Shown: in pieces, positions 3,571 through 15,534 of the stretch
How the letters are laid out: each line of letters starts with the position of its first letter
Position numbering within the stretch: the first letter of the stretch is position 1
Assembly: GCA_041690395.1 (NCBI GenBank)
Contig: JAWLHJ010000006.1
Coordinates: forward strand, 262,530 to 326,529
Length of the DNA stretch: 64,000 nucleotides
Origin: Longimicrobiales bacterium
GTDB lineage: Bacteria; Gemmatimonadota; Gemmatimonadetes; Longimicrobiales; Gaopeijiaceae
Direction of reading: 5' to 3'
Notes under the pieces: generated by a model
Databases searched by the model: none
What the model was told of the DNA's origin: nothing
The model's input: only the letters and a program-made list of their open reading frames with translations
Translations under genes and position numbers: made by a program

Positions 3571-5259
3571 TCACGGCAGGAACGCGGGCGGGCGCAGCAG
3601 GTGGAAGTCCGTAGCCTCCTGATAGGCACGCGCGACCGAGAGCAGCGTCGCCTCGTCGTAGAGCCGTCCGATGAAGGTGATGCTGTTCGGCGAGTCCGGG
3701 TCACGCATGCCGTTCGGGACGGCGATCGCCGGGTGGCCCGTGAGGTTCGTCAGGAGCGAGCTGTCGCCGCGTCCGGCCGGGGCCGCATAGACGTCTACTT
3801 CGGTGAAGAGGTCGCGCATGTCCACGCCGAGCAGCGCGCGGATACGGTTCGCCTGTATGTACTCCGCGGCCGGGATGAGTCGAGCGCTGCGCAGCACGTT
3901 CGGCCATGCATCGACCACCTGGCGCGGCAGCTCGTCGTCACGGTTCGAGAGCGTGATCCGGTCGAACGACGCGGCCGCCTCCGCTCCGAGGATGAGGCTG
4001 AGCGGCCCGATGGGTCCGTCCGGCAGGTCGACCGGGACCAGGCTGGCGCCGAGCGAGCGCAGCACCTCCAGCGTCTCGAGGTCCAGCCCCACGTCCGGGC
4101 CGTCTCCCTCGAAGTCGGCTTCCACGTAGCCGACCGTGAGCTCCGACCAGTCCACGCCGGGCTCGTAGTTGAACGGCGCGTCGACCGCGCTCGGATCGAT
4201 GCCGTCGGCGCCCCGAATCGCGTCGAGCACCATGCCGCAGTCCTCGGCGACCCGGCAGATCGGCCCGACCTTGTCCATCGACCAGCTCACCGCCATGGCA
4301 CCGGCCCGACTCACGCGGCCGAAGGTGGGTCGGAGCCCGGTGACCCCCGTCGTCGCCGACGGCGACACGATGGAGCCCCACGTCTCGGTCCCGATCGCGA
4401 ACGGGGCGAGTCCGGCCGACACCGCCGCGGCCGACCCGGCCGACGACCCGCTCGAGCCTTCCTCGAGATTCCACGGGTTCCGTGTCCGCCCGCCGAACCA
4501 CACGTCGCCCCACGCCAGGGCGCCGAGGCTCACCTTGGCGAGGAGCACCGCGCCGGCCTCCGCCAACTCGGTCGCGACCGTGGCCGTGCCGTCCATCTCC
4601 TCGAAGCCGGACGGGACGGCGCCCCAGGTCGTCGGGTAGCCCTCGAGGGCGAAGAGGTCCTTGAGCACGTACGGGATGCCATGAAGCGGCCCCCGATCCG
4701 TCCCCGCAGCCAGCTCGGCGTCGGCCGTCGCGGCCTGGGCGAGCGCCTCGTCCTCGAGGAGCGTCACCACCAGCTCGAGGCTGGGATCGTGCCGCTCGAT
4801 CCGGTCGAGGTACATGCGGGTGAGCTCCACCGATGTGACCTGACCGGTCCGCAGCAGCGCCCCGAGCTCGGCGATGGTCCAGTACGCCGCCTCCTCCAGC
4901 GACTCGGGGCGGGTGACCGCCGGGAGCGGGCTCCACACGGGTCCGTCGTCCCGCTCGGGCAGCATCCATGACACCGGTCCGGGCACGAAGTTGATGGCGG
5001 GCATGACCGCCTGGTCCGGGCCTGCCGCCCGGATCTCCCCGTAGCTTTCCCTTAGCGCCGCGAGGTCCTGGAAGAACTGCTGTCGCTCGAGCATCTGCGA
5101 CCGCTCCTCCGGAGTGAACGCGAGCCCGAGGATCTCCTCCGCGGCACGGATCTCGTCCGCTGTGATCCCCTCCAGCTCCGCGTCGTCGGAGGGAGCACAA
5201 CCGGCGGCCAGAAGACCCGTTGCGAGGATGAGGAGTCGGTGGAGCGGGCGGACGATCAT
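3571..5259 (-). CDS. Amidase-signature family enzyme, lipoprotein
   Basis: ATG 5259 with SD AAGGAG; lipobox LAAGC; 'GPLHGIPYVLKD', 'GSSGSSAGSAAAV', 'GTETWGSIVSP', 'GLRPTFGRVSR'. Confidence 0.9.
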   Translation of the reverse strand: MIVRPLHRLLILATGLLAAGCAPSDDAELEGITADEIRAAEEILGLAFTPEERSQMLERQQFFQDLAALRESYGEIRAAGPDQAVMPAINFVPGPVSWMLPERDDGPVWSPLPAVTRPESLEEAAYWTIAELGALLRTGQVTSVELTRMYLDRIERHDPSLELVVTLLEDEALAQAATADAELAAGTDRGPLHGIPYVLKDLFALEGYPTTWGAVPSGFEEMDGTATVATELAEAGAVLLAKVSLGALAWGDVWFGGRTRNPWNLEEGSSGSSAGSAAAVSAGLAPFAIGTETWGSIVSPSATTGVTGLRPTFGRVSRAGAMAVSWSMDKVGPICRVAEDCGMVLDAIRGADGIDPSAVDAPFNYEPGVDWSELTVGYVEADFEGDGPDVGLDLETLEVLRSLGASLVPVDLPDGPIGPLSLILGAEAAASFDRITLSNRDDELPRQVVDAWPNVLRSARLIPAAEYIQANRIRALLGVDMRDLFTEVDVYAAPAGRGDSSLLTNLTGHPAIAVPNGMRDPDSPNSITFIGRLYDEATLLSVARAYQEATDFHLLRPPAFLP

Positions 5260-5559
5260 GGCTGGCTCTCCTTCACGGGACGACGCGAAACGACGGCCGG
5301 CACGGGCTTGCCGGCTCGACGGCAACCTGCAGATGCGACCCCCGACTGGCCAGGGAGGCCGCCGCGCGGCATCCGGCCAATCCCGGAAATTGAAGCCTGA
5401 TTGGTCGGAATTTGCGGGACCGGGGGAGTGACCGTATCGTGACGCGATGACACCGGGAGCTCCTCCCACCTCCCCTCCCCCCCGATGCGGACGGAAACCC
5501 GGTGCTCGCCGGTCGTTAGGACCGGCCTCGTACGTACCCCGCCATAGGAGTCGGCACTC

Positions 5560-8500
5560 ATGTCCTCCTCTCGTTCGAACCCATCTCCGGGCGCAGGGCC
5601 CCTCGGTCGGGCTGCACCCGAAAACCGAGCGCATCGACCGATGTCGGTCGCCGCTCTGCTCCTCGCCTTCGCGATCTGGGCAGCCCCCGCGGCCGCGCAG
5701 GACCAGGTCGGAGGACGCGTCCTCGACGCGAACACGAACCAGCCGCTGTCGGGGGTGCAGGTGTCGGTCCAGGGCACCGGACTCGGCGCCCTGACGCAGG
5801 CCAACGGGACATTCCTGGTCCGCGGCCTCACCCAGTCCACGGTCACCGTCGAGGCGCTCATGCTCGGCTACACGACCTGGACCGGCGAGGTCGCCGCGGG
5901 AACGACGGACCTGGTGATCCGCATGGAGCCCCGGGCCGTGGAGCTCAACGCGATCGTGGTTACAGGAACCGCGGGCGCTCAGCAGGCGCGCTCGCTCGGA
6001 AACACCGTGGGCCGCGTCCGTGCCGACGAGCTCACCCAGATCGCGCCCCCCTCGGACGTCGAGTCCCTCCTCACCGGCTCGGTCCCGGGCATGAACGTGT
6101 CGGCCGGCGGCGGTGAGATCGGGACCGGCAGCAACATCCGGATTCGCGGGGCGAGCTCCGTGGCGCTCAGCTCCCAGCCGCTCGTCTACATCGACGGGGT
6201 GCGGGTGAACGGCAGCAACGCGGACACCGGCGGCGGCATCGGCGGGGTCGGCATCGACAACTCCGTGCCGCCTTCCCGCCTGAACGACATCAACCCCGAG
6301 GACATCGAGTCCATCGAGGTCATCAAGGGCCCGGCGGCCGCGACGCTGTACGGGACCGAAGCGTCGAACGGCGTCATCAACATCATCACCAAGCGGGGCG
6401 ACCGTGGCTCGCCGAGCTTCACCTTCACGCTGAAACAGGGAGCGAACTGGCTCCCCGACCCGGAAGGGTACTTCCCGAGCACCTACTACCGGTGCCAGGG
6501 AACTGGCGACTGCACGCCGGGCGAGGTGACGGAGTTCAACGTCCTCCGCGAGGACCGGATCCGGAACGGGAACGAGTGGTTCCAGACCGGTCAGGCGCAG
6601 GGATACGCCGCGAGCGTGAGCGGCGGTACGGATGAAGTCCGGTACTACTTCTCGGGCGACTGGGACCGGGACGAGGGCATCGTCGACTACAACTGGCAGA
6701 ATCAGATGCGTGGCCGGGCGAACCTCAACTGGACGCCCCGCGAGGACTTCGACCTGCAGTTCGGCGTGGGCGGCGTGCGCTCGGTGCTGTCGACCGCCTC
6801 GGCGAACCAGCCCATCACCACGGCCATCCTCTGGTCCTGCTTCGGCGGCTGCGAGGAGGGTCAGCCTGGAAACACGGTCGACTCTCCGCAGCGTGGCTAC
6901 ATCGGCTACCTCCCGGAGGTGCTCGCGGACTCCGTCGAGGGCCGACAGGCCGTGAACCGCAGCACCTACAACGCGACGGCCACCCACCGGCCGACGCCGT
7001 GGCTGACGCACCGCCTCCGTTGGGGCGCGGACTGGACCGAGACCAACAACACGGAGCTGTACCGGCCCATCAGCGGTCCCGGACATGGTCAGCCCCAGGG
7101 GTCGAAGACGGCGCAGCGCCAGACGTCGCAGTACGTCACGCTCGACTACTCGGCGACCGCCGACTGGAACGCCACGGAGGACATGGCGTTCTCGACCTCC
7201 GCCGGGGTCCAGTACTACCAGCGCCAGTTCGACTGGGTCTACGCCCGTGGCGCGATCTTCCCGGTCGCCACGCTCGAAACCGTCAGCGCCGGGTCGCAGA
7301 AGGCCGCCGAAGAGGGCTTCGTCGAGAACAAGACCCTCGGCGCCTACATCCAGGAGCAGTTCTCGTGGCGCAACCGTCTATTCCTGACTGCGGCGGCGCG
7401 CGGGGACGACAACTCGGCCTTCGGACAGAACTTCGACTTCGTGCTGTATCCGAAGTTCAGCGCCAGCTGGGTGCTGTCGGAGGAGCCCTTCCTCGAGGAC
7501 AGCGAGCTGTTCGACCAGCTCCGCTTCCGCGCGGCGTGGGGACGGGCCGGTCAGCAGCCCGACGTCTTCGCGGCGCTCCGTACCTACGAGCCGTCCACCG
7601 GACCGGGCGGCAGCTCCGGGCTCAGGCCCGACAACATCGGTAACGCGGACCTGAAGCCGGAGGTCGGTGAGGAGCTCGAGCTCGGATTCGACGCGAGCAT
7701 CCTGGACGACCGGCTGAGCTTCGAGCTCACCTACTACGATCAGACGCGGAAGGACGCGCTCATCGAGGTCCCGGTGAGGCCTTCCGTCGGGTTCCCCGGT
7801 ACGCAGTTCCAGAACATCGGAGAGATCGCCAACTCCGGCTTCGAGTTCGGCATCAACGCCGGCGTCGCGCAGGGGGACGACTGGAATCTCGACATGAGCC
7901 TCAGTCTGTCCACGAACAGCAACGAGCTCGTGTCACTCGGTGGACTACCGCCGCAGATCCTGAACGCGTCCAACCCGACCACCGGGTGGGCCGGACAGTA
8001 CTACGTCGAGAACTTCCCACTCGGCGCGATCTTCCTCAAGAACGTGGTCTCCGCGGACATCACGGGCTCCGGCGCGACCGCGGTCGCGACGAACGTGATG
8101 TGCGAGGGTGGCGACGTCATCGCCGGCACGCCGAGCCTCTCGCGAGGCGGTGGCTCCGCGGTGTCGTGCGACGACGCGCCCTACATCTACCAGGGCGCGC
8201 CGGTCCCGACCAGGGAAGCCACTTGGACCAGCACGCTCACGCTCTTCAACGACCTGCAGCTCTTCGCTCAGGTCGACTACCAGGGCGGGCATACCATGGT
8301 GAACGGGACGGCCGCCGGCGCGCACACCTTCTTCAAGGTGACGCGGGAAATCCAGGAGCGTGAGGATCCGATCCTCCTGGGCTACGAGGCGCTGGGCTCG
8401 GAAGGGATGAACCAGCCCGGCCTCATCGACGCGAGCTTCGCGAAGCTCCGGCGCGTTTCGGCGAGCTACACGCTCCCGGGCGAGTTCGCGTCTCGGTTCG

Positions 8501-8709
8501 GGGCGAGCAACCTCACCCTGAACCTTTCCGCCCATAACCTTTGGACCATCTGGCAGGCGACGGACGAGATGTTCGGCTACCCCATCCAGGATCCCGAGCA
8601 GAGGGACACCGGAGCGGCCGGGAACGACCCCGGCGGGCTCCACGCCTACGTGCAGGAAGCATGGCCGCCCATCAAGCGGCTGCTCTTCACCATTCGGGCC
8701 ACGTTCTGA
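5560..8709 (+). CDS. SusC/RagA family TonB-linked outer membrane protein
   Basis: SD AGGAG; signal peptide; 'IRIRGASS', 'PLVYIDGV', 'LNDINPEDIESIEVIKGPAAATLYGTEASNGVINIITKRG', 'NADLKPE'; C-terminal F. Confidence 0.92.
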   Translation: MSSSRSNPSPGAGPLGRAAPENRAHRPMSVAALLLAFAIWAAPAAAQDQVGGRVLDANTNQPLSGVQVSVQGTGLGALTQANGTFLVRGLTQSTVTVEALMLGYTTWTGEVAAGTTDLVIRMEPRAVELNAIVVTGTAGAQQARSLGNTVGRVRADELTQIAPPSDVESLLTGSVPGMNVSAGGGEIGTGSNIRIRGASSVALSSQPLVYIDGVRVNGSNADTGGGIGGVGIDNSVPPSRLNDINPEDIESIEVIKGPAAATLYGTEASNGVINIITKRGDRGSPSFTFTLKQGANWLPDPEGYFPSTYYRCQGTGDCTPGEVTEFNVLREDRIRNGNEWFQTGQAQGYAASVSGGTDEVRYYFSGDWDRDEGIVDYNWQNQMRGRANLNWTPREDFDLQFGVGGVRSVLSTASANQPITTAILWSCFGGCEEGQPGNTVDSPQRGYIGYLPEVLADSVEGRQAVNRSTYNATATHRPTPWLTHRLRWGADWTETNNTELYRPISGPGHGQPQGSKTAQRQTSQYVTLDYSATADWNATEDMAFSTSAGVQYYQRQFDWVYARGAIFPVATLETVSAGSQKAAEEGFVENKTLGAYIQEQFSWRNRLFLTAAARGDDNSAFGQNFDFVLYPKFSASWVLSEEPFLEDSELFDQLRFRAAWGRAGQQPDVFAALRTYEPSTGPGGSSGLRPDNIGNADLKPEVGEELELGFDASILDDRLSFELTYYDQTRKDALIEVPVRPSVGFPGTQFQNIGEIANSGFEFGINAGVAQGDDWNLDMSLSLSTNSNELVSLGGLPPQILNASNPTTGWAGQYYVENFPLGAIFLKNVVSADITGSGATAVATNVMCEGGDVIAGTPSLSRGGGSAVSCDDAPYIYQGAPVPTREATWTSTLTLFNDLQLFAQVDYQGGHTMVNGTAAGAHTFFKVTREIQEREDPILLGYEALGSEGMNQPGLIDASFAKLRRVSASYTLPGEFASRFGASNLTLNLSAHNLWTIWQATDEMFGYPIQDPEQRDTGAAGNDPGGLHAYVQEAWPPIKRLLFTIRATF

Positions 8710-8738
8710 TGAGCCGCCGAGCCAGGAGAATCAACGAT

Positions 8739-10112
8739 ATGAACAGCAAGACGAACACATACCGAGCGAAGCGCCAGCGCACGCGGTCCAGCACCCGTGC
8801 GGTGCTGGGCGCGGCGCTCGTCGCGACCGCGGCACTGGCGGCGTGCGACACCGACAGCCTCCTGGAGGTCGACCTTCCGGGACGGGTGTCCGAAGACGCC
8901 CTGAACGACCCGAGGCTGGCGGGAACGCTCGTCAACTCGGTCATTGCCGACGTGGAATGCTCGTGGGACAACTACGTCGCGGCCGCGGCGCATCACTCCG
9001 ACGAGTGGATCGCCAGCTCCGGAAACTCGACGATGGCCCGGTGGGGACTACGGGACATCTCACCCACCTTCGCCGCTATGGCGACCGGAGGATGCGGCAC
9101 CAGCTACGGTCTCTTCACACCGCTGCACGGCGCCCGCGTCCAGGCGGACAGCAACTTCGAGCGGATCTCGGGCTTCGACGAAGCCGCCGTGCCCGATCGG
9201 ATCGAATACCTGGCCACCATTCGCGCGTACGGCGCGTGGCCGCTCATCGCGTTCAGCGAGGGCTTCTGCGGCACTCCCCTGGACGGGGGCGACACGGTGC
9301 TCGGCCCGCAGGAGCTCGCGGAGCTGGCCGAGGCGCAGTTCACCGAGGCCATCGACCTGGCCACCCAGGCGGGGCGGGACGACCTGGTGAATCTCGCGCT
9401 CCTGGGTAGGGCGCGGGCTCGCCTGACGCTCGGGGACTACCCGGGCGTCATCGACGACGCGGAGGAGATCCCGGAGGACTTCCTCTTCGTGGCGACGCGG
9501 GACAACAGCCCGGGCGACCGCCAGAACGCGCACTACGAGTCGATCAACGGTGGACCGGGGGAGTCTTCGGGAACGAAGCACGCCACTGTCGCGCCGAACT
9601 ATCGAGACGTGCAGTGGAAGGGCGTCGCCGACCCGCGCGTGGACGTGGAGTGGGACGGCACGCTGGGATTCGACTTCTTCACCCGGCACTTCCGCAACAA
9701 CAAGATCAACTCCTACGATGCGCCCACGACCATGGCACGGTGGGCGGAAGCGCGGCTCTTCATGGCCGAGGCCTACGCGATGACGGACGAGCTCGACCTG
9801 GCCATCGCCATCCTGGACGATCTCCACACACGCGCCGGCATACCGGAGGTGAACGACACCGATCTACCGACCCAGGCCGACGTGATCCGCCACATCATCC
9901 AGGAACGGTCCCGGGAGATGTTCTCGGAGGGCGGACACCGGCTGCGTGACCATCTCCGTTGGCGCGGCACCGATTACGAGGTGCCCTTCCTGGGTGAGCC
10001 GGGGTCGATCCACCCGAACGGGCGTCTGCTCGATCCCGAGACGGGCGATCCCCTGCGGGAGTACGAAGACGCGACCTGCTTCCCGGTGCCGACCGTGGAG
10101 ATCTCGGGGTAG
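8739..10112 (+). CDS. SusD/RagB family nutrient-binding lipoprotein
   Basis: SD AGGAG before ATG 8739 (alternative ATG 8709 overlaps the susC-like stop); lipobox LAAC; 'ARWAEARLFMAEA', 'ERSREMFSEGGHRLRD'. Confidence 0.88.
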   Translation: MNSKTNTYRAKRQRTRSSTRAVLGAALVATAALAACDTDSLLEVDLPGRVSEDALNDPRLAGTLVNSVIADVECSWDNYVAAAAHHSDEWIASSGNSTMARWGLRDISPTFAAMATGGCGTSYGLFTPLHGARVQADSNFERISGFDEAAVPDRIEYLATIRAYGAWPLIAFSEGFCGTPLDGGDTVLGPQELAELAEAQFTEAIDLATQAGRDDLVNLALLGRARARLTLGDYPGVIDDAEEIPEDFLFVATRDNSPGDRQNAHYESINGGPGESSGTKHATVAPNYRDVQWKGVADPRVDVEWDGTLGFDFFTRHFRNNKINSYDAPTTMARWAEARLFMAEAYAMTDELDLAIAILDDLHTRAGIPEVNDTDLPTQADVIRHIIQERSREMFSEGGHRLRDHLRWRGTDYEVPFLGEPGSIHPNGRLLDPETGDPLREYEDATCFPVPTVEISG

Positions 10113-10215: not shown

Positions 10216-12729
10216 TCAGCCCACCAACGCCGCCAGCTTCTCCAGCGCCGCCATGAGGTCGGGCTCCTCCTCGAGGACCGGGGCCATCGGGTCGCCGCCG
10301 AGCCGTTCCATGCGCTCCGGCACGGTCCGGATCGTGTAGTCGCCGAGCGCGAGCCCGGGCCGGACCTCGTCCCAGTCAAGGGGCGCCGAGACCGGAGCGC
10401 CCGGGAGCGGCCGGACCGTGAACGGCGCCGCGATCAGTCGCCCATGCCCGTTCTGGACGAAGTCGAGATATACCTTCCCCTCACGACGCCCGGGCGCCCG
10501 GGTGAGCGTCGCGATATCCGGCCGCCGCGTGGCGACGACCCGGCCCAGCAGCTCCGCCAGCGTGCGCGACTGGTCGTGATCGAGTCGCCCCGCGAGCGGT
10601 AGCAGCACGTGCATCCCGGACGACCCGCTGGTCTTCGGGTACGACGGAAGCCCGATCTCGTCGCACAGCGCACGCAGCTCGAGCGCCACGGCGACGACGT
10701 CATCCAACGGCGCCTCCTTCGGATCGAGGTCCAGGACGCACCAGTCCGGGCGGTCGAGACTACCCGCCCGGGACGACCACACGTGGATCGGGATGGTCCC
10801 CAGGTTCACGACGTACAGGAGCGCGTCGACGTCGTCGGCCACGAAGTACGACAACTCCCGCTCGGATCCTTCGCTCCAGACCGTGACCGTGCGGATCCAG
10901 TCGGGCGCGTGCGGAGGCGCGTCCTTCTGGAAGAACGACTTACCGTCGATCCCGTCGGGGTAGCGGGTCATGACGAGCGGGCGGTCCCGGAGGTACGTGA
11001 GCATCCAGGGCGCAACGAGGCGATGGTACTCGATGAGGTCGCCCTTGGTGTAGCCCTCGGCCGGCCAGAACACCTTGTCCAGGTTGGTGAACCGGGGGCC
11101 GTCCTCGGCGGGAGGAAGCGGGGGCGGAAGTTCGACGTCGGGAACGTCGTCCCGGCACTCGTCGGGCGTCTTGTCGTCACGCAAGCGGTTGAACACGGGA
11201 TGCCGGAGCAGCCCCTGCTCGGTCCGCTCCTTGAAGCGGACCTCCACGACCAGCTCGGGCCGGGCCCAGTGGTGCTTCGGACCCTGAGGGACCGGTCCGT
11301 CCGCACACGGCGACGCCTCGACCTCCGCCCCCTCAAGCACTCCACCGATGTCGGCCAGGTCGCGCTGGCTGAAGCCGCTCCCCACGCTCCCCGCGTAGCG
11401 GAGGTCCTCGCCCTCCCACCGTGCGACGTGGAGCGCCCCGAAGCCGCCGCGGCTTCCCTCGCCCTCGGTCCACCCGACCACCACGAAATCCTCCACGCGC
11501 TCACGTCGGACCTTGACCCAGCTCCGGCTCCGCCCACCCCGGTACGCCGACGTCCCGTCCTTCGCGACGATCCCCTCCAGGTCCATCCGCTCGACGCCGG
11601 CGAACATCGCCTCGCCCTCCCGCTCCACGTGCTCCGAGTACCGCACCGGGCCCACCGTCGGGAGCAGCTCCTGCAGGATCGCCTTGCGCTCGGTCAGGGG
11701 AAGGGCACGCAGATCGTACCCTTCGACCGCCAGGATATCGAACGCGTAGAATGTGGCGGGCAGCGTCCAGGACGCCCGGAGCGCATCGAGTGGTCGCGCG
11801 ATGCGGCCGCGCTTCTGGAGCAGACCGAACGACGGCTTCCCGTCCGGGCCGTGCACGACGACCTCGCCGTCCACGACGAGTCCCTGGTACGGCAGTCCGC
11901 GGACGGCACGGGCCACGTCGGGGAAGGCCGCGGTGAGGTCGTTCCCGTTCCGCGAGAGAAGCTCCGCGATTCCGTCGGCCCGTCCCGCGAGAAGTCGGTA
12001 CCCGTCGTACTTGAGCTCGAACAGCCAGCCGTCACGTGAGAACGGGCGGTCCTCGGCAGTTGCGAGCATCGGCCGCACGTCCCGCACGGACACCGGTCGC
12101 CGGCGCGCTCCGGCCTCCTCGAGCCGCGCACGCAACGCCTCGGCACGACGCTCGATCTCCGGGAATTCCTCGACGGTGAGCCCCGAGTAGATCGAGTCGT
12201 CCGGGTAGGACTCGGTCGAGCCGTCGGGGTCCTCGTACGCGTCCCGCTCCTTGATGAGAAGCCAGGAGCGCTCGTCCTGCTTCGTCTTCACGAGCGTCCA
12301 CAGACCCTTCAGCTTGTGGCCGTGGAGCTCGAAAAGGAGCTTGCCCTTCTCGAGACCCTTCCCGAGATCCTCCTTCGGGACCCAGACACCCCGGTCCCAG
12401 ACGATCATCGCGCCCGCACCGTATTCACCATGGGGAATGACGCCCTCGAACTCGGCGTACTCGAGCGGATGGTCCTCTGTGCGCACCGCCAGCCGCTTGT
12501 CCGCCTGCGAGGGCGACGGCCCCTTCGGCACTGCCCAGGAGAGTAGTACGCCCTCGTGCTCCAGGCGCAGATCCCAATGGAGCTGTCGCGCCGCATGGTG
12601 CTGGACCACGAAGGCCCTTCCCCCCGAAAGGACCTCGCCTCCGAACGGCTCGGGCGTGCGCATCGGATCGCGCTTCGCGCGATAGTCGGCGAGGCGGGTG
12701 TCCGGATCGGTGGGCGGTCGGGGCGACAT
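10216..12729 (-). CDS. ligD: DNA ligase D (phosphoesterase-ligase-polymerase, NHEJ)
   Basis: PE domain 'FVVQHHAARQLHWDLRLE..SWAVPKG..EDHPLEY'; ligase 'ELKYDGYR', 'EGIVAK', 'WVKV'; primase/polymerase 'RYPDG', 'VLDLDP', 'KTSGSSGMH'; start placed at ATG 12729 (MSPRPP). Confidence 0.93.
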   Translation of the reverse strand: MSPRPPTDPDTRLADYRAKRDPMRTPEPFGGEVLSGGRAFVVQHHAARQLHWDLRLEHEGVLLSWAVPKGPSPSQADKRLAVRTEDHPLEYAEFEGVIPHGEYGAGAMIVWDRGVWVPKEDLGKGLEKGKLLFELHGHKLKGLWTLVKTKQDERSWLLIKERDAYEDPDGSTESYPDDSIYSGLTVEEFPEIERRAEALRARLEEAGARRRPVSVRDVRPMLATAEDRPFSRDGWLFELKYDGYRLLAGRADGIAELLSRNGNDLTAAFPDVARAVRGLPYQGLVVDGEVVVHGPDGKPSFGLLQKRGRIARPLDALRASWTLPATFYAFDILAVEGYDLRALPLTERKAILQELLPTVGPVRYSEHVEREGEAMFAGVERMDLEGIVAKDGTSAYRGGRSRSWVKVRRERVEDFVVVGWTEGEGSRGGFGALHVARWEGEDLRYAGSVGSGFSQRDLADIGGVLEGAEVEASPCADGPVPQGPKHHWARPELVVEVRFKERTEQGLLRHPVFNRLRDDKTPDECRDDVPDVELPPPLPPAEDGPRFTNLDKVFWPAEGYTKGDLIEYHRLVAPWMLTYLRDRPLVMTRYPDGIDGKSFFQKDAPPHAPDWIRTVTVWSEGSERELSYFVADDVDALLYVVNLGTIPIHVWSSRAGSLDRPDWCVLDLDPKEAPLDDVVAVALELRALCDEIGLPSYPKTSGSSGMHVLLPLAGRLDHDQSRTLAELLGRVVATRRPDIATLTRAPGRREGKVYLDFVQNGHGRLIAAPFTVRPLPGAPVSAPLDWDEVRPGLALGDYTIRTVPERMERLGGDPMAPVLEEEPDLMAALEKLAALVG

Positions 12730-12881: not shown

Positions 12882-13742
12882 ATGCCTCCCGAGCACAGGA
12901 ACCGTGAGTTGACCGCCGCCGGCGCGCCGGGCTCGCTCAGAGCCCGCACGTTCCAGGTCATCTTCGAACACGACACCGTGGGCGGCCGAGCCTTCGACGT
13001 TCTGCTCTTCCTCGCCATCCTCGCCAGCGTGCTCGCCGTCATGCTGGAGTCCGTCGCGGGCGTTCGCGACGACCACGGCGAGGCCCTGCTCGCGGCGGAG
13101 TGGGTCTTCACGGTGATCTTCACGCTCGAGTACGCCCTGCGCCTATGGTGTGTCCGCCAGCCCCGAACGTATGCGCGCAGCTTCTTCGGCGTCATCGACC
13201 TGTTGGCCGTGCTCCCCACCTACGTGAGCCTGGTCGCCCCGGGCGGCCAGGTGCTCATGGCGGTCCGGATCCTCAGGGTCATGCGCATCTTCCGGGTCCT
13301 GAAGCTCACCCGCTACGTCGGCGAGGCGAGCCTGCTAGGAGACGCGCTGCGGGCGTCTCGCTTCAAGATCTCGGTGTTCCTCCTGGGGGTGCTCAGCACC
13401 GTGGTCGTGGTCGGCTCGGTCATGTACCTGATCGAGGGGCCGGAGTCCGGCTTCACGAGCATCCCGAAAGGCGTGTACTGGGGGATCGTCACCCTGACGA
13501 CGGTCGGCTTCGGGGACATCGCACCGGTGACGCCGCTCGGACAGGCGCTGGCCGCCGTCGTCATGATCATGGGATACGGGATCATCGCGGTGCCCACCGG
13601 CATCGTGACCGCGGAGCTCACCCGACTCCCGCGGGGAGAGGAAGCCGTCGGGGTGGTCTGTTCGACCTGCGGAACGCGGGAGACGGACCCGAAGGCACGC
13701 TTCTGCCGGCGGTGCGGGGACGGCCTCGATACTGCGGGATAG
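12882..13742 (+). CDS. Voltage-gated-type potassium channel (ion transporter) with C-terminal zinc ribbon
   Basis: S4 'RILRVMRIFRVLK'; selectivity filter 'TLTTVGFGD'; C-terminal CxxC...CxxC (CSTC, CRRC). Confidence 0.9.
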   Translation: MPPEHRNRELTAAGAPGSLRARTFQVIFEHDTVGGRAFDVLLFLAILASVLAVMLESVAGVRDDHGEALLAAEWVFTVIFTLEYALRLWCVRQPRTYARSFFGVIDLLAVLPTYVSLVAPGGQVLMAVRILRVMRIFRVLKLTRYVGEASLLGDALRASRFKISVFLLGVLSTVVVVGSVMYLIEGPESGFTSIPKGVYWGIVTLTTVGFGDIAPVTPLGQALAAVVMIMGYGIIAVPTGIVTAELTRLPRGEEAVGVVCSTCGTRETDPKARFCRRCGDGLDTAG

Positions 13743-13767
13743 AACAGTGCGCCGGCGCATTTTTCTG

Positions 13768-13797
13768 TTGCATCCGCCGGAAGCGCCGCCATATGTT
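13768..13797 (+). promoter_or_regulatory. Candidate sigma70-like promoter of ku (nearly leaderless)
   Basis: TTGCAT (13768-73), 18 bp, TATGTT (13792-97); ku ATG 8 nt downstream with no well-spaced SD. Confidence 0.35.
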
Positions 13798-13805
13798 TCC
13801 GGACC

Positions 13806-14672
13806 ATGACCGCACGCGCCATCGCATCGTCGACCATAAGCTTCGGGCTCGTCTCGCTCCCGGTGAAGCTCTACTCCACCGCCGAGTCGGGCCGCCGCAT
13901 ATCCTTCAACATGATCTGGAAGGAGCGGGGGGTCCGTGTACGCCAGCAGTACATCGACCCGGCGGACGGAGCCGTCGTCCCCAAGGACGAGATCGTGAAG
14001 GGCTACGAGTTCGCCAAGGACCAGTACGTCCTGTTCAGCGACGAGGAGCTCAAGGTCGTCGAGGCGCCCAAGTCGGACGAGATCGAGATCGTTCGGTTCA
14101 TCCCGGAGGGCTCGGTCGGCAGGCTGTACTTCAACAAGGCCTACTATCTCGGTCCCGACAAGGGAGGCGCCCGGGCCTACCGTCTGCTGGCCGCGGCGCT
14201 CGAGGAGACCGGTCGGGTCGCCCTCGCCAAGCACGCCACGCGGGGTAAGCAATACCTCGTCGTGGTCCGACCCCACGAGGGAGGACTGCTCCTCGAGCAG
14301 CTCTACTACGCCGACGAGATCCGTCCCTTCTCCGAGGTCCCGCTCGAGGACGGCGAGGTGAACGCCGCGGAGCTCGAGCTCGCCACGAAGCTGATCGAGC
14401 AGGCCGCGGCCGACGAGTTCGAGCCCAGCGAGTTCGAGGACGAGGTCCGGGAGCGGATGCTCGAGCTGATCGAGCAGAAGGTGGCCGGCCAGGAGATCAC
14501 GGCGGCGCCCGCGGCCGAGCCGAAGACGCAGATCATCGACCTCATGGCGGCGCTGAAGGCGTCCATCAAGGAGTCCGATGGCGAGCGGAAGCCTGCGGCC
14601 CGGGCCGGCAAGAAGGGGGATTCCGGAGCGGGGAAGAAGACGACGAAGCGGAAGAAGGCTTCGTCGGGCTGA
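13806..14672 (+). CDS. ku: Ku protein (NHEJ end-binding)
   Basis: 'ISFGLVSLPVKLY', 'IVKGYEF.KDQYV', 'AYYLGP', 'IIDLMAALKAS', Lys-rich tail. Confidence 0.95.
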   Translation: MTARAIASSTISFGLVSLPVKLYSTAESGRRISFNMIWKERGVRVRQQYIDPADGAVVPKDEIVKGYEFAKDQYVLFSDEELKVVEAPKSDEIEIVRFIPEGSVGRLYFNKAYYLGPDKGGARAYRLLAAALEETGRVALAKHATRGKQYLVVVRPHEGGLLLEQLYYADEIRPFSEVPLEDGEVNAAELELATKLIEQAAADEFEPSEFEDEVRERMLELIEQKVAGQEITAAPAAEPKTQIIDLMAALKASIKESDGERKPAARAGKKGDSGAGKKTTKRKKASSG

Positions 14673-14697
14673 CGTCGCGCGCCGCGCCCGTCGTCCC

Positions 14698-15534
14698 GTG
14701 AGAGGATACACCACCCGCGAGGTCTCCGAGATCCTGGAGCTGCCCGCGTCCCGCATCCGTGACTGGACGCACCGTGGGCTGCTCGAGCCCGAGCGCGGAC
14801 CGAGAGGCGCATATCTGTTCTCCTTCCAGGACGTGGTGCTGCTTCGGGCCGCACGTGAGCTCCTCGACCAGCGCGTCTCGACCCGCCGGGTACGTATGGC
14901 GCTGGAGGCGCTTCGTGAGCAGCTCCCGGAAGGACGTCCGCTGAGCGGCGTCCGGATCGCGGCATTCGGCGACCGGGTGGTCGTCCACGACGCCGATACC
15001 GTGTGGGAGCCCGCCTCCGGACAGCTGACCCTGGACTTCGCGGTCTCGGAGGTGGTGACCCGGGCGGAGCCGATCGTGCGGCGCGGCCTGGACCGGCCCG
15101 GCGCCCCTTCGAGCCCGACCGCCGACGACTGGTACGACACCGGGCTCGACCTGGAAGCCGTGTCGCCCGAGGAGGCCGTGGCCGCCTACCGGCGGGCTCT
15201 CGACATCGATGCGACCCACGCGGAGGCTCATTTGAACCTGGGACGACTTCTTCACGAAGCCGGAGAGACGTCCGAGGCGCTGAGGCACTACCGGCTCGCC
15301 GCGGACGCGAGCCCGCCCGACGCTCGCGCTCGCTACAACGCCGGCGTCGCGCTGGAGGACCTGGGGCGACCGAAGGAAGCCGTCGACGCCTACCTGGCGG
15401 CCATCGAGCTCGACCCGGCGCTCGCCCCGGCGCACTTCAACCTCTCCCGCCTCCACGAGTCCGAGGGGCGCAAGGCCGAGGCGCTCGAGCACCTCGTGGC
15501 ATACAAGCGGCTCCGCGACGCGGGCGCGGGCTGA
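14698..15534 (+). CDS. MerR-like HTH plus tetratricopeptide-repeat protein
   Basis: GTG 14698; 'YTTREVSEILELPASRIRDWTHRGLLEP...YLFSFQDVVLLR' winged HTH; TPRs 'AHLNLGRLL', 'ARYNAGVALEDLG', 'AHFNLSRL'. Confidence 0.85.
   Translation: MRGYTTREVSEILELPASRIRDWTHRGLLEPERGPRGAYLFSFQDVVLLRAARELLDQRVSTRRVRMALEALREQLPEGRPLSGVRIAAFGDRVVVHDADTVWEPASGQLTLDFAVSEVVTRAEPIVRRGLDRPGAPSSPTADDWYDTGLDLEAVSPEEAVAAYRRALDIDATHAEAHLNLGRLLHEAGETSEALRHYRLAADASPPDARARYNAGVALEDLGRPKEAVDAYLAAIELDPALAPAHFNLSRLHESEGRKAEALEHLVAYKRLRDAGAG

Follow-up and report, generated by a model that had tools for sequence, protein, structure and literature searches.

Does the gene that directly follows ku in a Longimicrobiales bacterium encode a third component of non-homologous end joining (NHEJ)? 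The bacterial pathway is taught as the work of Ku and LigD, and the basic tail of Ku has been studied for DNA binding, threading and bridging. The window analysed here, a stretch of 64,000 nucleotides from contig JAWLHJ010000006.1, contains a Ku-LigD locus, with a Ku scoring over the family cut-off and a three-domain LigD nearby. An earlier reading of the letters alone (the sequence-only reading) had placed 25 nt after the ku stop codon a gene for a protein with a MerR-like winged helix-turn-helix (wHTH) and tetratricopeptide repeats (TPRs), and both Pfam and an AlphaFold model confirmed this description of the gene, which we call gene X. Its suggestion that X is an uncharacterised protein tied to Ku and LigD is well supported by the adjacency to ku in four phyla and by a co-varying peptide in the Ku tail. 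It appears highly probable that X and Ku act together in one way or another. More specifically, we propose, with a probability of about 0.45, that X is an optional Ku partner, whose TPR groove would bind a tail peptide of the form R-K-P-[A/P]-x-R while the MerR head would hold DNA. The proposal builds on the observed gene order, domain layout and conserved groove, and on the finding that X and the Ku peptide tend to be present together and lost together.

Linkage of gene X to ku across genomes

Using a profile of the 124 N-terminal residues of X, we recovered 299 clusters (50 % identity) at E-values of 1e-30 or lower. In the GTDB loci, ku lies directly upstream and on the same strand in 25 of 26 homologues (27 loci were listed and one weak partial match was dropped). 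The 301 genomes of the window's phylum, Gemmatimonadota, comprise 57 with X and 211 with Ku, and X stands behind ku in 56 of the 57, two of which have about 0.6 kb between the genes; in the 57th, ku was not found. X is thus very rarely seen in the absence of Ku. In Burkholderiales, X was detected in 23 of 251 genomes, all within the 47 in which a single-protein search detected Ku, and 24 of 25 X loci adjoin ku. The same holds for 30 of 34 high-scoring X loci from 201 Acidobacteriota genomes and for 45 of 47 X loci on metagenome contigs, the other two having less than 180 nt upstream. The median gap between ku and gene X is 23 nt (99 adjacent pairs). Related genomes are non-independent samples in all these counts. 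An unpublished genome, G328, enters the Acidobacteriota tally, which becomes 29 of 33 when it is removed; another, G155, in which Ku but no X was found, enters the phylum tally. Neither of them carries a conclusion by itself. The link of X to ku, of which the sequence-only reading had proposed a measurement as a check, is strong.

Cultured Variovorax strains carry the ku-X operon, and some genomes hold several pairs, with three in one Variovorax genome (G302; L100, L105, L106) and two in one Acidobacteriota genome (G301; L103, L104), so the pair seems to duplicate or move as a unit. TPR matches beside ku in two loci lacking X (L339, L345) were not accepted as X, as their sequences, judged by eye, look like TPR-bearing membrane proteins of the rhomboid-like kind.

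We also identified variant architectures. A longer form of the family in Planctomycetota has an N-terminal BRCT domain, which Pfam recognised in one Acidobacteriota protein and in two of five proteins scanned from Planctomycetes, and ku is found at most 5.5 kb from this form in 13 of 20 loci. In seven Planctomycetota loci (L220, L222, L227, L231, L232, L233 and L236), ku and the BRCT-MerR-TPR gene are separated by a stand-alone ATP-dependent ligase domain; the opposite strand of these loci carries a further, LigD-like gene, and only part of its ligase region could be aligned. A sister MerR-TPR family without the beta-hairpin stands behind ku in two of five genomes.

Domain architecture of X

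In the head of X, the wing and FSFQD/R50 are almost invariant and R63 and R64 mostly kept, whereas the surface positions of the recognition helix (17, 18, 22 and 23) vary even inside one phylum (2.3-2.8 bits). Such a pattern would fit backbone binding better than recognition of a fixed operator.

In the first full-length model most of aa 79-113 had a predicted local distance difference test score (pLDDT) below 50. A fold search with the full model was swamped by TPR matches, and the N-terminal part was therefore folded, with a deeper alignment, and searched separately. The refolded model has strands at 85-90, 93-98, 101-104 and 109-111, the last with a pLDDT of about 68, and residues 112-125 stay below 50. 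The sequence-only reading had described this region as a linker containing QLTLDF; the position of the motif was right, but the label is incomplete, as the model predicts a sheet of four strands for aa 85-111. In one other genome (G335, L172:4880-5584), a MerR wHTH with the same beta-sheet is fused to a HicB-like antitoxin domain, which points to the head of X as a reusable regulatory module.

Pfam TPR families span aa 157-252, and the AlphaFold model shows four helix pairs followed by a capping helix, a fold matching OGT and consensus TPRs. An asparagine ladder on helix A, typical of tandem TPRs, is well conserved among 99 homologues (N180 in 96, N214 in 94, N248 in 99), as is an acidic ridge (E153 in 97, E187 in 84, D221 in 93, E254 in 83); the groove-facing positions are those we take from general TPR geometry rather than from coordinates. 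The TPR part as a whole is acidic, with 26 D/E against 15 K/R. The ladder and the ridge suggest, as far as conservation patterns can, a groove suited to an extended basic peptide. X has no cysteine, and no alignment column has one in more than 29 of the 99 homologues. As X has no catalytic motif, it would act as a scaffold or modulator rather than as an enzyme.

Co-variation of X with a Ku tail peptide

Ku proteins encoded beside X carry the peptide R-K-P-[A/P]-x-R a few residues past the conserved C-terminal helix, in which D245, M247, A249, L250 and S253 are invariant among 99 Ku. By analogy, this helix likely corresponds to the LigD-binding minimal C-terminal region of Ku in Bacillus subtilis. 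To avoid circularity, the peptide profile applied to Gemmatimonadota tails was built from 38 motifs of Acidobacteriota and Burkholderiales Ku (one X-linked Ku was dropped, as its tail could not be parsed, and the 40 X-less Ku were hand-picked from the listed matches in X-negative genomes). Scores of at least 6 bits were reached by 43 of 55 X-linked and two of 40 X-less Ku, by none of 20 further Ku unlinked to X, and by an average of 1.2 of 55 shuffled X-linked tails. One of the two X-less positives (G167, L353:4847-5077) has a decayed X remnant, the last TPR and capping helix, behind its peptide-bearing ku, probably a recent loss of X. The peptide is kept in two loci where X lies away from ku (L392, L421) and absent in X-less genomes with the same Ku type (L383, L431). 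One X-adjacent Ku on the opposite strand scores below 6. Planctomycete Ku linked to the short form of the family have the RKP peptide in three of four cases.

A tree of the Ku core was calculated with the tails excluded, after removing five long-branch rows and one near-duplicate and adding six rows, and it contains 16 changes of X status. On this tree, 16 non-overlapping contrasts gave 11 in the same direction, none opposite and five ties (p about 0.001 with all branches), but this value depends on unsupported branches and kin are not independent; the well-supported branches leave seven pairs, with which the sign test does not reach significance (median p 0.125). Further observations also weigh against X as a specific partner of the Ku tail. 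Twelve of the 55 X-linked Ku fall below the profile threshold, and three of eight Ku of other types score at least 6 (L401, L434, L437), as tails rich in Lys, Ala and Arg can match by chance. Because X-less Ku tails are shorter (median 23 against 35 aa), general tail decay could mimic a specific loss. In favour of such a partnership, a peptide of their own, K[ML]A[PSAK]S, is present in all but one of 11 Ku linked to the BRCT form and in none of eight unlinked Planctomycete Ku, but the pattern was derived from the sequences it was scored on and these Ku may be one clade. As for the linkage, X is absent from 155 of the 211 Ku-positive Gemmatimonadota genomes, and so it is optional and end joining there is probably independent of it. 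Only three of 24 low-scoring family loci in Acidobacteriota adjoin ku, and in about seven of 23 Planctomycete genomes with a family member Ku was not found, so the wider MerR/TPR family is not strictly tied to Ku.

Possible mode of action

If X is indeed a partner of the Ku tail, the co-variation would reflect a contact in which its TPR groove grips R-K-P-[A/P]-x-R in the basic C-terminal tail. X may dimerise via its small beta-sheet, judging from its likeness to CvkR, the repressor of a type V-K CRISPR-associated transposon (CAST), whose residues 81-132 form a dimer through beta strands (PMC9938897). The MerR-type head would hold DNA with little sequence preference, and the dimer could then clip onto both tails of the Ku dimer and onto the flanking DNA, tuning the dwell time of Ku at ends, end bridging and the access of LigD. 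In B. subtilis the basic extension of Ku limits threading and is needed for bridging, and the minimal C-terminal region binds LigD (PMC4889933). Since the extension and the adjacent helix control these steps in that species, X bound to the extension could tune threading, bridging and LigD recruitment.

A broader version of the idea is more tentative. End joining may be a three-protein process across Gemmatimonadota, Acidobacteriota, Burkholderiales and Planctomycetota, in which a MerR/TPR adaptor would read a lock-and-key peptide of the Ku tail (RKPxxR where the adaptor is the short form, a KKMAPS-like one where it is the BRCT form) and link Ku-bound ends to the flanking DNA and perhaps to the sliding clamp.

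Alternative roles of X

We considered whether X could instead be a CvkR-like regulator of the ligD/ku divergon, possibly sensing Ku through the tail peptide as GlnR senses glutamine synthetase, and find this doubtful. CvkR is the best fold match of the head and covers both wHTH and beta domain (model residues 1-119 against CvkR chain residues 3-124; Z 9.6, 104 residues aligned, root-mean-square deviation 4.5, 19 % identity; Foldseek rank 1, E 5.4e-4), although this Z ties within 1 unit with matches to the wHTH only, over which the CvkR alignment has the advantage of being longer. The best natural PDB matches by sequence are GlnR, CarH and TnrA, those of GlnR and TnrA to the wHTH having E-values of 7e-7 to 1e-4 and covering aa 2-71 only. 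The effector of GlnR is glutamine synthetase (PMC9938897). Moreover, ligD is divergent from ku in the window, as is usual in the phylum, and the co-variation with the Ku tail fits a sensing role equally well.

Against this role, no shared palindrome was found within 160 nt upstream of ku in 56 X-positive loci, the top spaced palindromes being GC-only and present also in X-negative loci, and the CvkR operator was found in none of these 56 regions at up to two mismatches. In the window, the operator (AnnACATnATGTnnT) has no match near the locus and one distant match with one mismatch at 1633-1647. The spacer of the ku promoter is 17-18 nt with or without X (27 of 56 X-positive loci, or 27 of the 29 called, and 10 of 40 X-negative loci). 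The variable surface of the recognition helix within one phylum and the N-terminal BRCT domain in Planctomycetes, a domain more usual in repair proteins, also speak against a regulator. The earlier idea that X regulates the locus thus gained no support from the search for operators upstream of ku, which does not exclude targets elsewhere.

A second alternative, compatible with recognition of the Ku tail, concerns QLTLDF, which the sequence-only reading took for a sliding-clamp-binding motif that would let X tether Ku and LigD to DnaN left on DNA. We regard this role as unlikely, and binding of the motif itself to the clamp as unlikely to doubtful. QLTLDF fits the canonical hexameric definition, Q-aliphatic-x-[LM]-x-[FL] (PMC11139829). 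Among the representatives, Q is kept in 140 of 144 and F or L at position 6 in 141 of 143, and residues 112-125, of which L112 and F114 have no partner there, are of low confidence in the monomer model. Among 99 ku-linked homologues the relaxed form Q-x-x-hydrophobic-x-[FL] occurs in 96, but the canonical form in just 38 and the strict QLxLxF in 17; Tyr stands at position 2 in 15, Thr in 11 and Ala in seven, while 32 have Phe or Ile at position 4. What is kept is Q109 with hydrophobic residues at positions 4 and 6. The preceding Gly is kept in 130 of 144 representatives, as for a turn; the model places residues 109-111 in a strand of the sheet, within the part aligned with CvkR residues 3-124, a range that takes in most of the CvkR dimerisation domain; and TPR-less MerR proteins have GGQLMLVF or HGQVVISV at the same place, again GQ and a hydrophobic strand. 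In the window genome, 7 of 2292 crudely called open reading frames (ORFs) contain the strict motif and 141 the loose form, a rough background, as the ORF filter missed X itself. Altogether a clamp adaptor is possible and not favoured.

The sister family favours a clamp link somewhere in the superfamily. Q[LM][NS]LF is present in 119 of 120 close members (close relatives, found using a motif-containing query), the family being the one with two of five copies behind ku, and the family (L180:2736-3536; L239, L242) has an almost invariant GQLNLFP, a textbook pentameric clamp motif. The sequences make this family a better candidate clamp ligand than X. The idea that its QLNLF and QLTLDF are positional equivalents found no backing from hhalign, which did not align the two.

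Finally, it is very unlikely that X is a passenger with an unrelated job, which travelled as a cassette in the company of a single Ku clade, the peptide being only a clade marker that decays as tails shorten. In favour of this, X-linked Ku of different phyla resemble each other more (about 44-57 % identity to the window Ku) than do the remaining Ku encoded in those genomes (about 29-42 %), the distances among Ku are correlated with those among X (rho 0.49), and many distant MerR/TPR family members are located elsewhere. Against it, three family architectures occur behind ku, in one case with a Ku of greater divergence, and the peptide was lost on several separate X-less branches inside the X-type Ku clade and kept where X moved away from ku.

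Layout of the locus

The features of the locus are given in Table 1. The GTG start of gene X is favoured because its closest homologues share its length (mostly 274-282 aa) and N-terminus (M[KR]G[YF][TS]TREV), and homologue starts ruled out a longer overlapping ORF from 14578. The closest named relatives of X are from Gemmatimonadota. Among the contigs listed for one RNA run, which contained 0.11 of the words, none spans ku and gene X, a result that is neutral on co-transcription. The ku gene is apparently leaderless in most Gemmatimonadota, with a -10-like hexamer 5-8 nt before the ATG. The promoter scanner had no match over its threshold, and the promoter read by eye falls below that threshold.

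The channel gene between ligD and ku was found in three of 26 related loci, in a few close relatives only, and its product has a zinc-ribbon-like stretch at the C-terminus. Downstream of gene X lies a convergent gene for a POT transporter. Both the channel gene and the transporter were rejected as members of the system, being neighbours specific to the lineage. Upstream of ligD, at 3571-10112, we noticed by eye an amidase-like ORF and then a TonB-dependent receptor/SusD-like pair.

Table 1. Features of the ku-X locus, with positions counted from the first letter of the window.
Feature	Position	Strand	Remarks
ligD (phosphoesterase, ATP-dependent ligase, primase/polymerase)	10216..12729	-	Pfam LigD_N, DNA_ligase_A_M/C, LigD_Prim-Pol; TIGR02776 517 bits; start codon is the first ATG of the ORF
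Ion-transport (potassium-channel-like) gene	12882..13742	+	Pfam Ion_trans; between ligD and ku
Terminator-like hairpin	13746-13761		After the channel gene; by-product of the promoter scan
Probable leaderless ku promoter	13768..13797	+	TTGCAT, 18 nt, TATGTT, 8 nt before ATG; sigma-70-like; read by eye; ku has this promoter type whether X is present or absent
ku (bacterial Ku, 288 aa)	13806..14672	+	Pfam Ku; TIGR02772 278.5 bits against a cut-off of 150
Ku C-terminal helix IIDLMAALKAS, aa 243-253	14532..14564	+	Conserved
Ku tail peptide ERKPAAR, aa 260-266	14583..14603	+	Family pattern R-K-P-[A/P]-x-R; predicted TPR ligand
Gene X (MerR-type wHTH, beta-sheet, four TPRs; 278 aa)	14698..15534	+	GTG start
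MerR-type wHTH of X, aa 4-71	14707..14910	+	Pfam MerR_1 E 1e-15; column statistics
Small beta-sheet of X, aa 85-114, CvkR/Rv2018-like	14950..15039	+	Predicted dimerisation module
QLTLDF of X, aa 109-114	15022..15039	+	Match to hexameric clamp motif; also last strand and exit of the beta-sheet
Four TPRs and capping helix of X, aa 142-277	15121..15528	+	Asn ladder N180/N214/N248; acidic ridge E153/E187/E220/D221/E254

Comparison with known systems

The X family is real, conserved and without a description in the literature searched, which left out subscription papers and supplements and in which we found no account of a MerR/TPR gene in ku operons. MerR, TPR, operon and BRCT are not mentioned in PMC11936186, nor TPR, accessory and clamp in PMC13717202, and a search of the ESM Atlas with an X homologue gave only uncharacterised MerR/TPR clusters. 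The peptide of the Ku tail that co-varies with X is new here.

The regulators that the head of X resembles differ from it in the remaining parts. CvkR (Alr3614, PDB 7xn2), like the model of X, has a wHTH followed by a small antiparallel beta domain, but it has a single terminal helix and binds a defined palindrome (PMC9938897), whereas X has four TPRs, is encoded beside ku and has no such operator upstream of ku. Rv2018 (PDB 5af3) shares the wHTH and beta region (model residues 1-117, a middling Z of 6.8, 105 residues aligned, root-mean-square deviation 3.5) and has no TPRs. GlnR and TnrA, minimal MerR-type regulators under the control of a partner protein, lack both the beta-sheet and the TPRs and serve nitrogen control, not repair. 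Classical MerR activators of the CueR/MerR type have the N-terminal winged HTH (fold matches with Z 8-9), but in place of their long coiled-coil dimerisation helix and effector cysteines X has predicted beta strands and no Cys. Their target promoters have a long spacer of 19-20 nt and a palindrome, unlike the ku promoter, the only one analysed, with its spacer of 17-18 nt and no shared palindrome.

As regards the clamp, QLTLDF fits the same hexameric definition as known motifs, such as those of the Pol III alpha C-terminus, Pol IV (RQLVLGL) and Pol V (QLNLF). These are short linear motifs in tails or loops, while in X the first three residues are predicted to belong to a sheet and most family members depart from the canonical form.

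A third protein in bacterial end joining has a precedent in UvrD1 of Mycobacterium tuberculosis, a reported partner of Ku (bioRxiv 2023.09.29.560180), although UvrD1 is a helicase and its domain content is unrelated to that of X. Prokaryotic NHEJ is described as a system of two factors (PMC1378119). If our reading is true, X would add a third NHEJ component and a protein-recognition role for the Ku tail in abundant soil and sediment phyla, with possible relevance to Ku/LigD pairs in genome editing. The locus is like the two-component NHEJ of M. tuberculosis, B. subtilis and Pseudomonas aeruginosa, in which a Ku homodimer acts with a multidomain LigD, in having a canonical ku and a phosphoesterase-ligase-polymerase ligD at one locus, and its Ku is like that of B. 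subtilis (PMC4889933) in having a conserved C-terminal helix and a basic extension. It is unlike these systems in having a third, non-enzymatic gene at operon-like spacing and a peptide in the basic Ku tail that tracks it. A three-protein system of this kind, if true, would give bacteria a counterpart to the scaffold proteins that assist end joining in eukaryotes.

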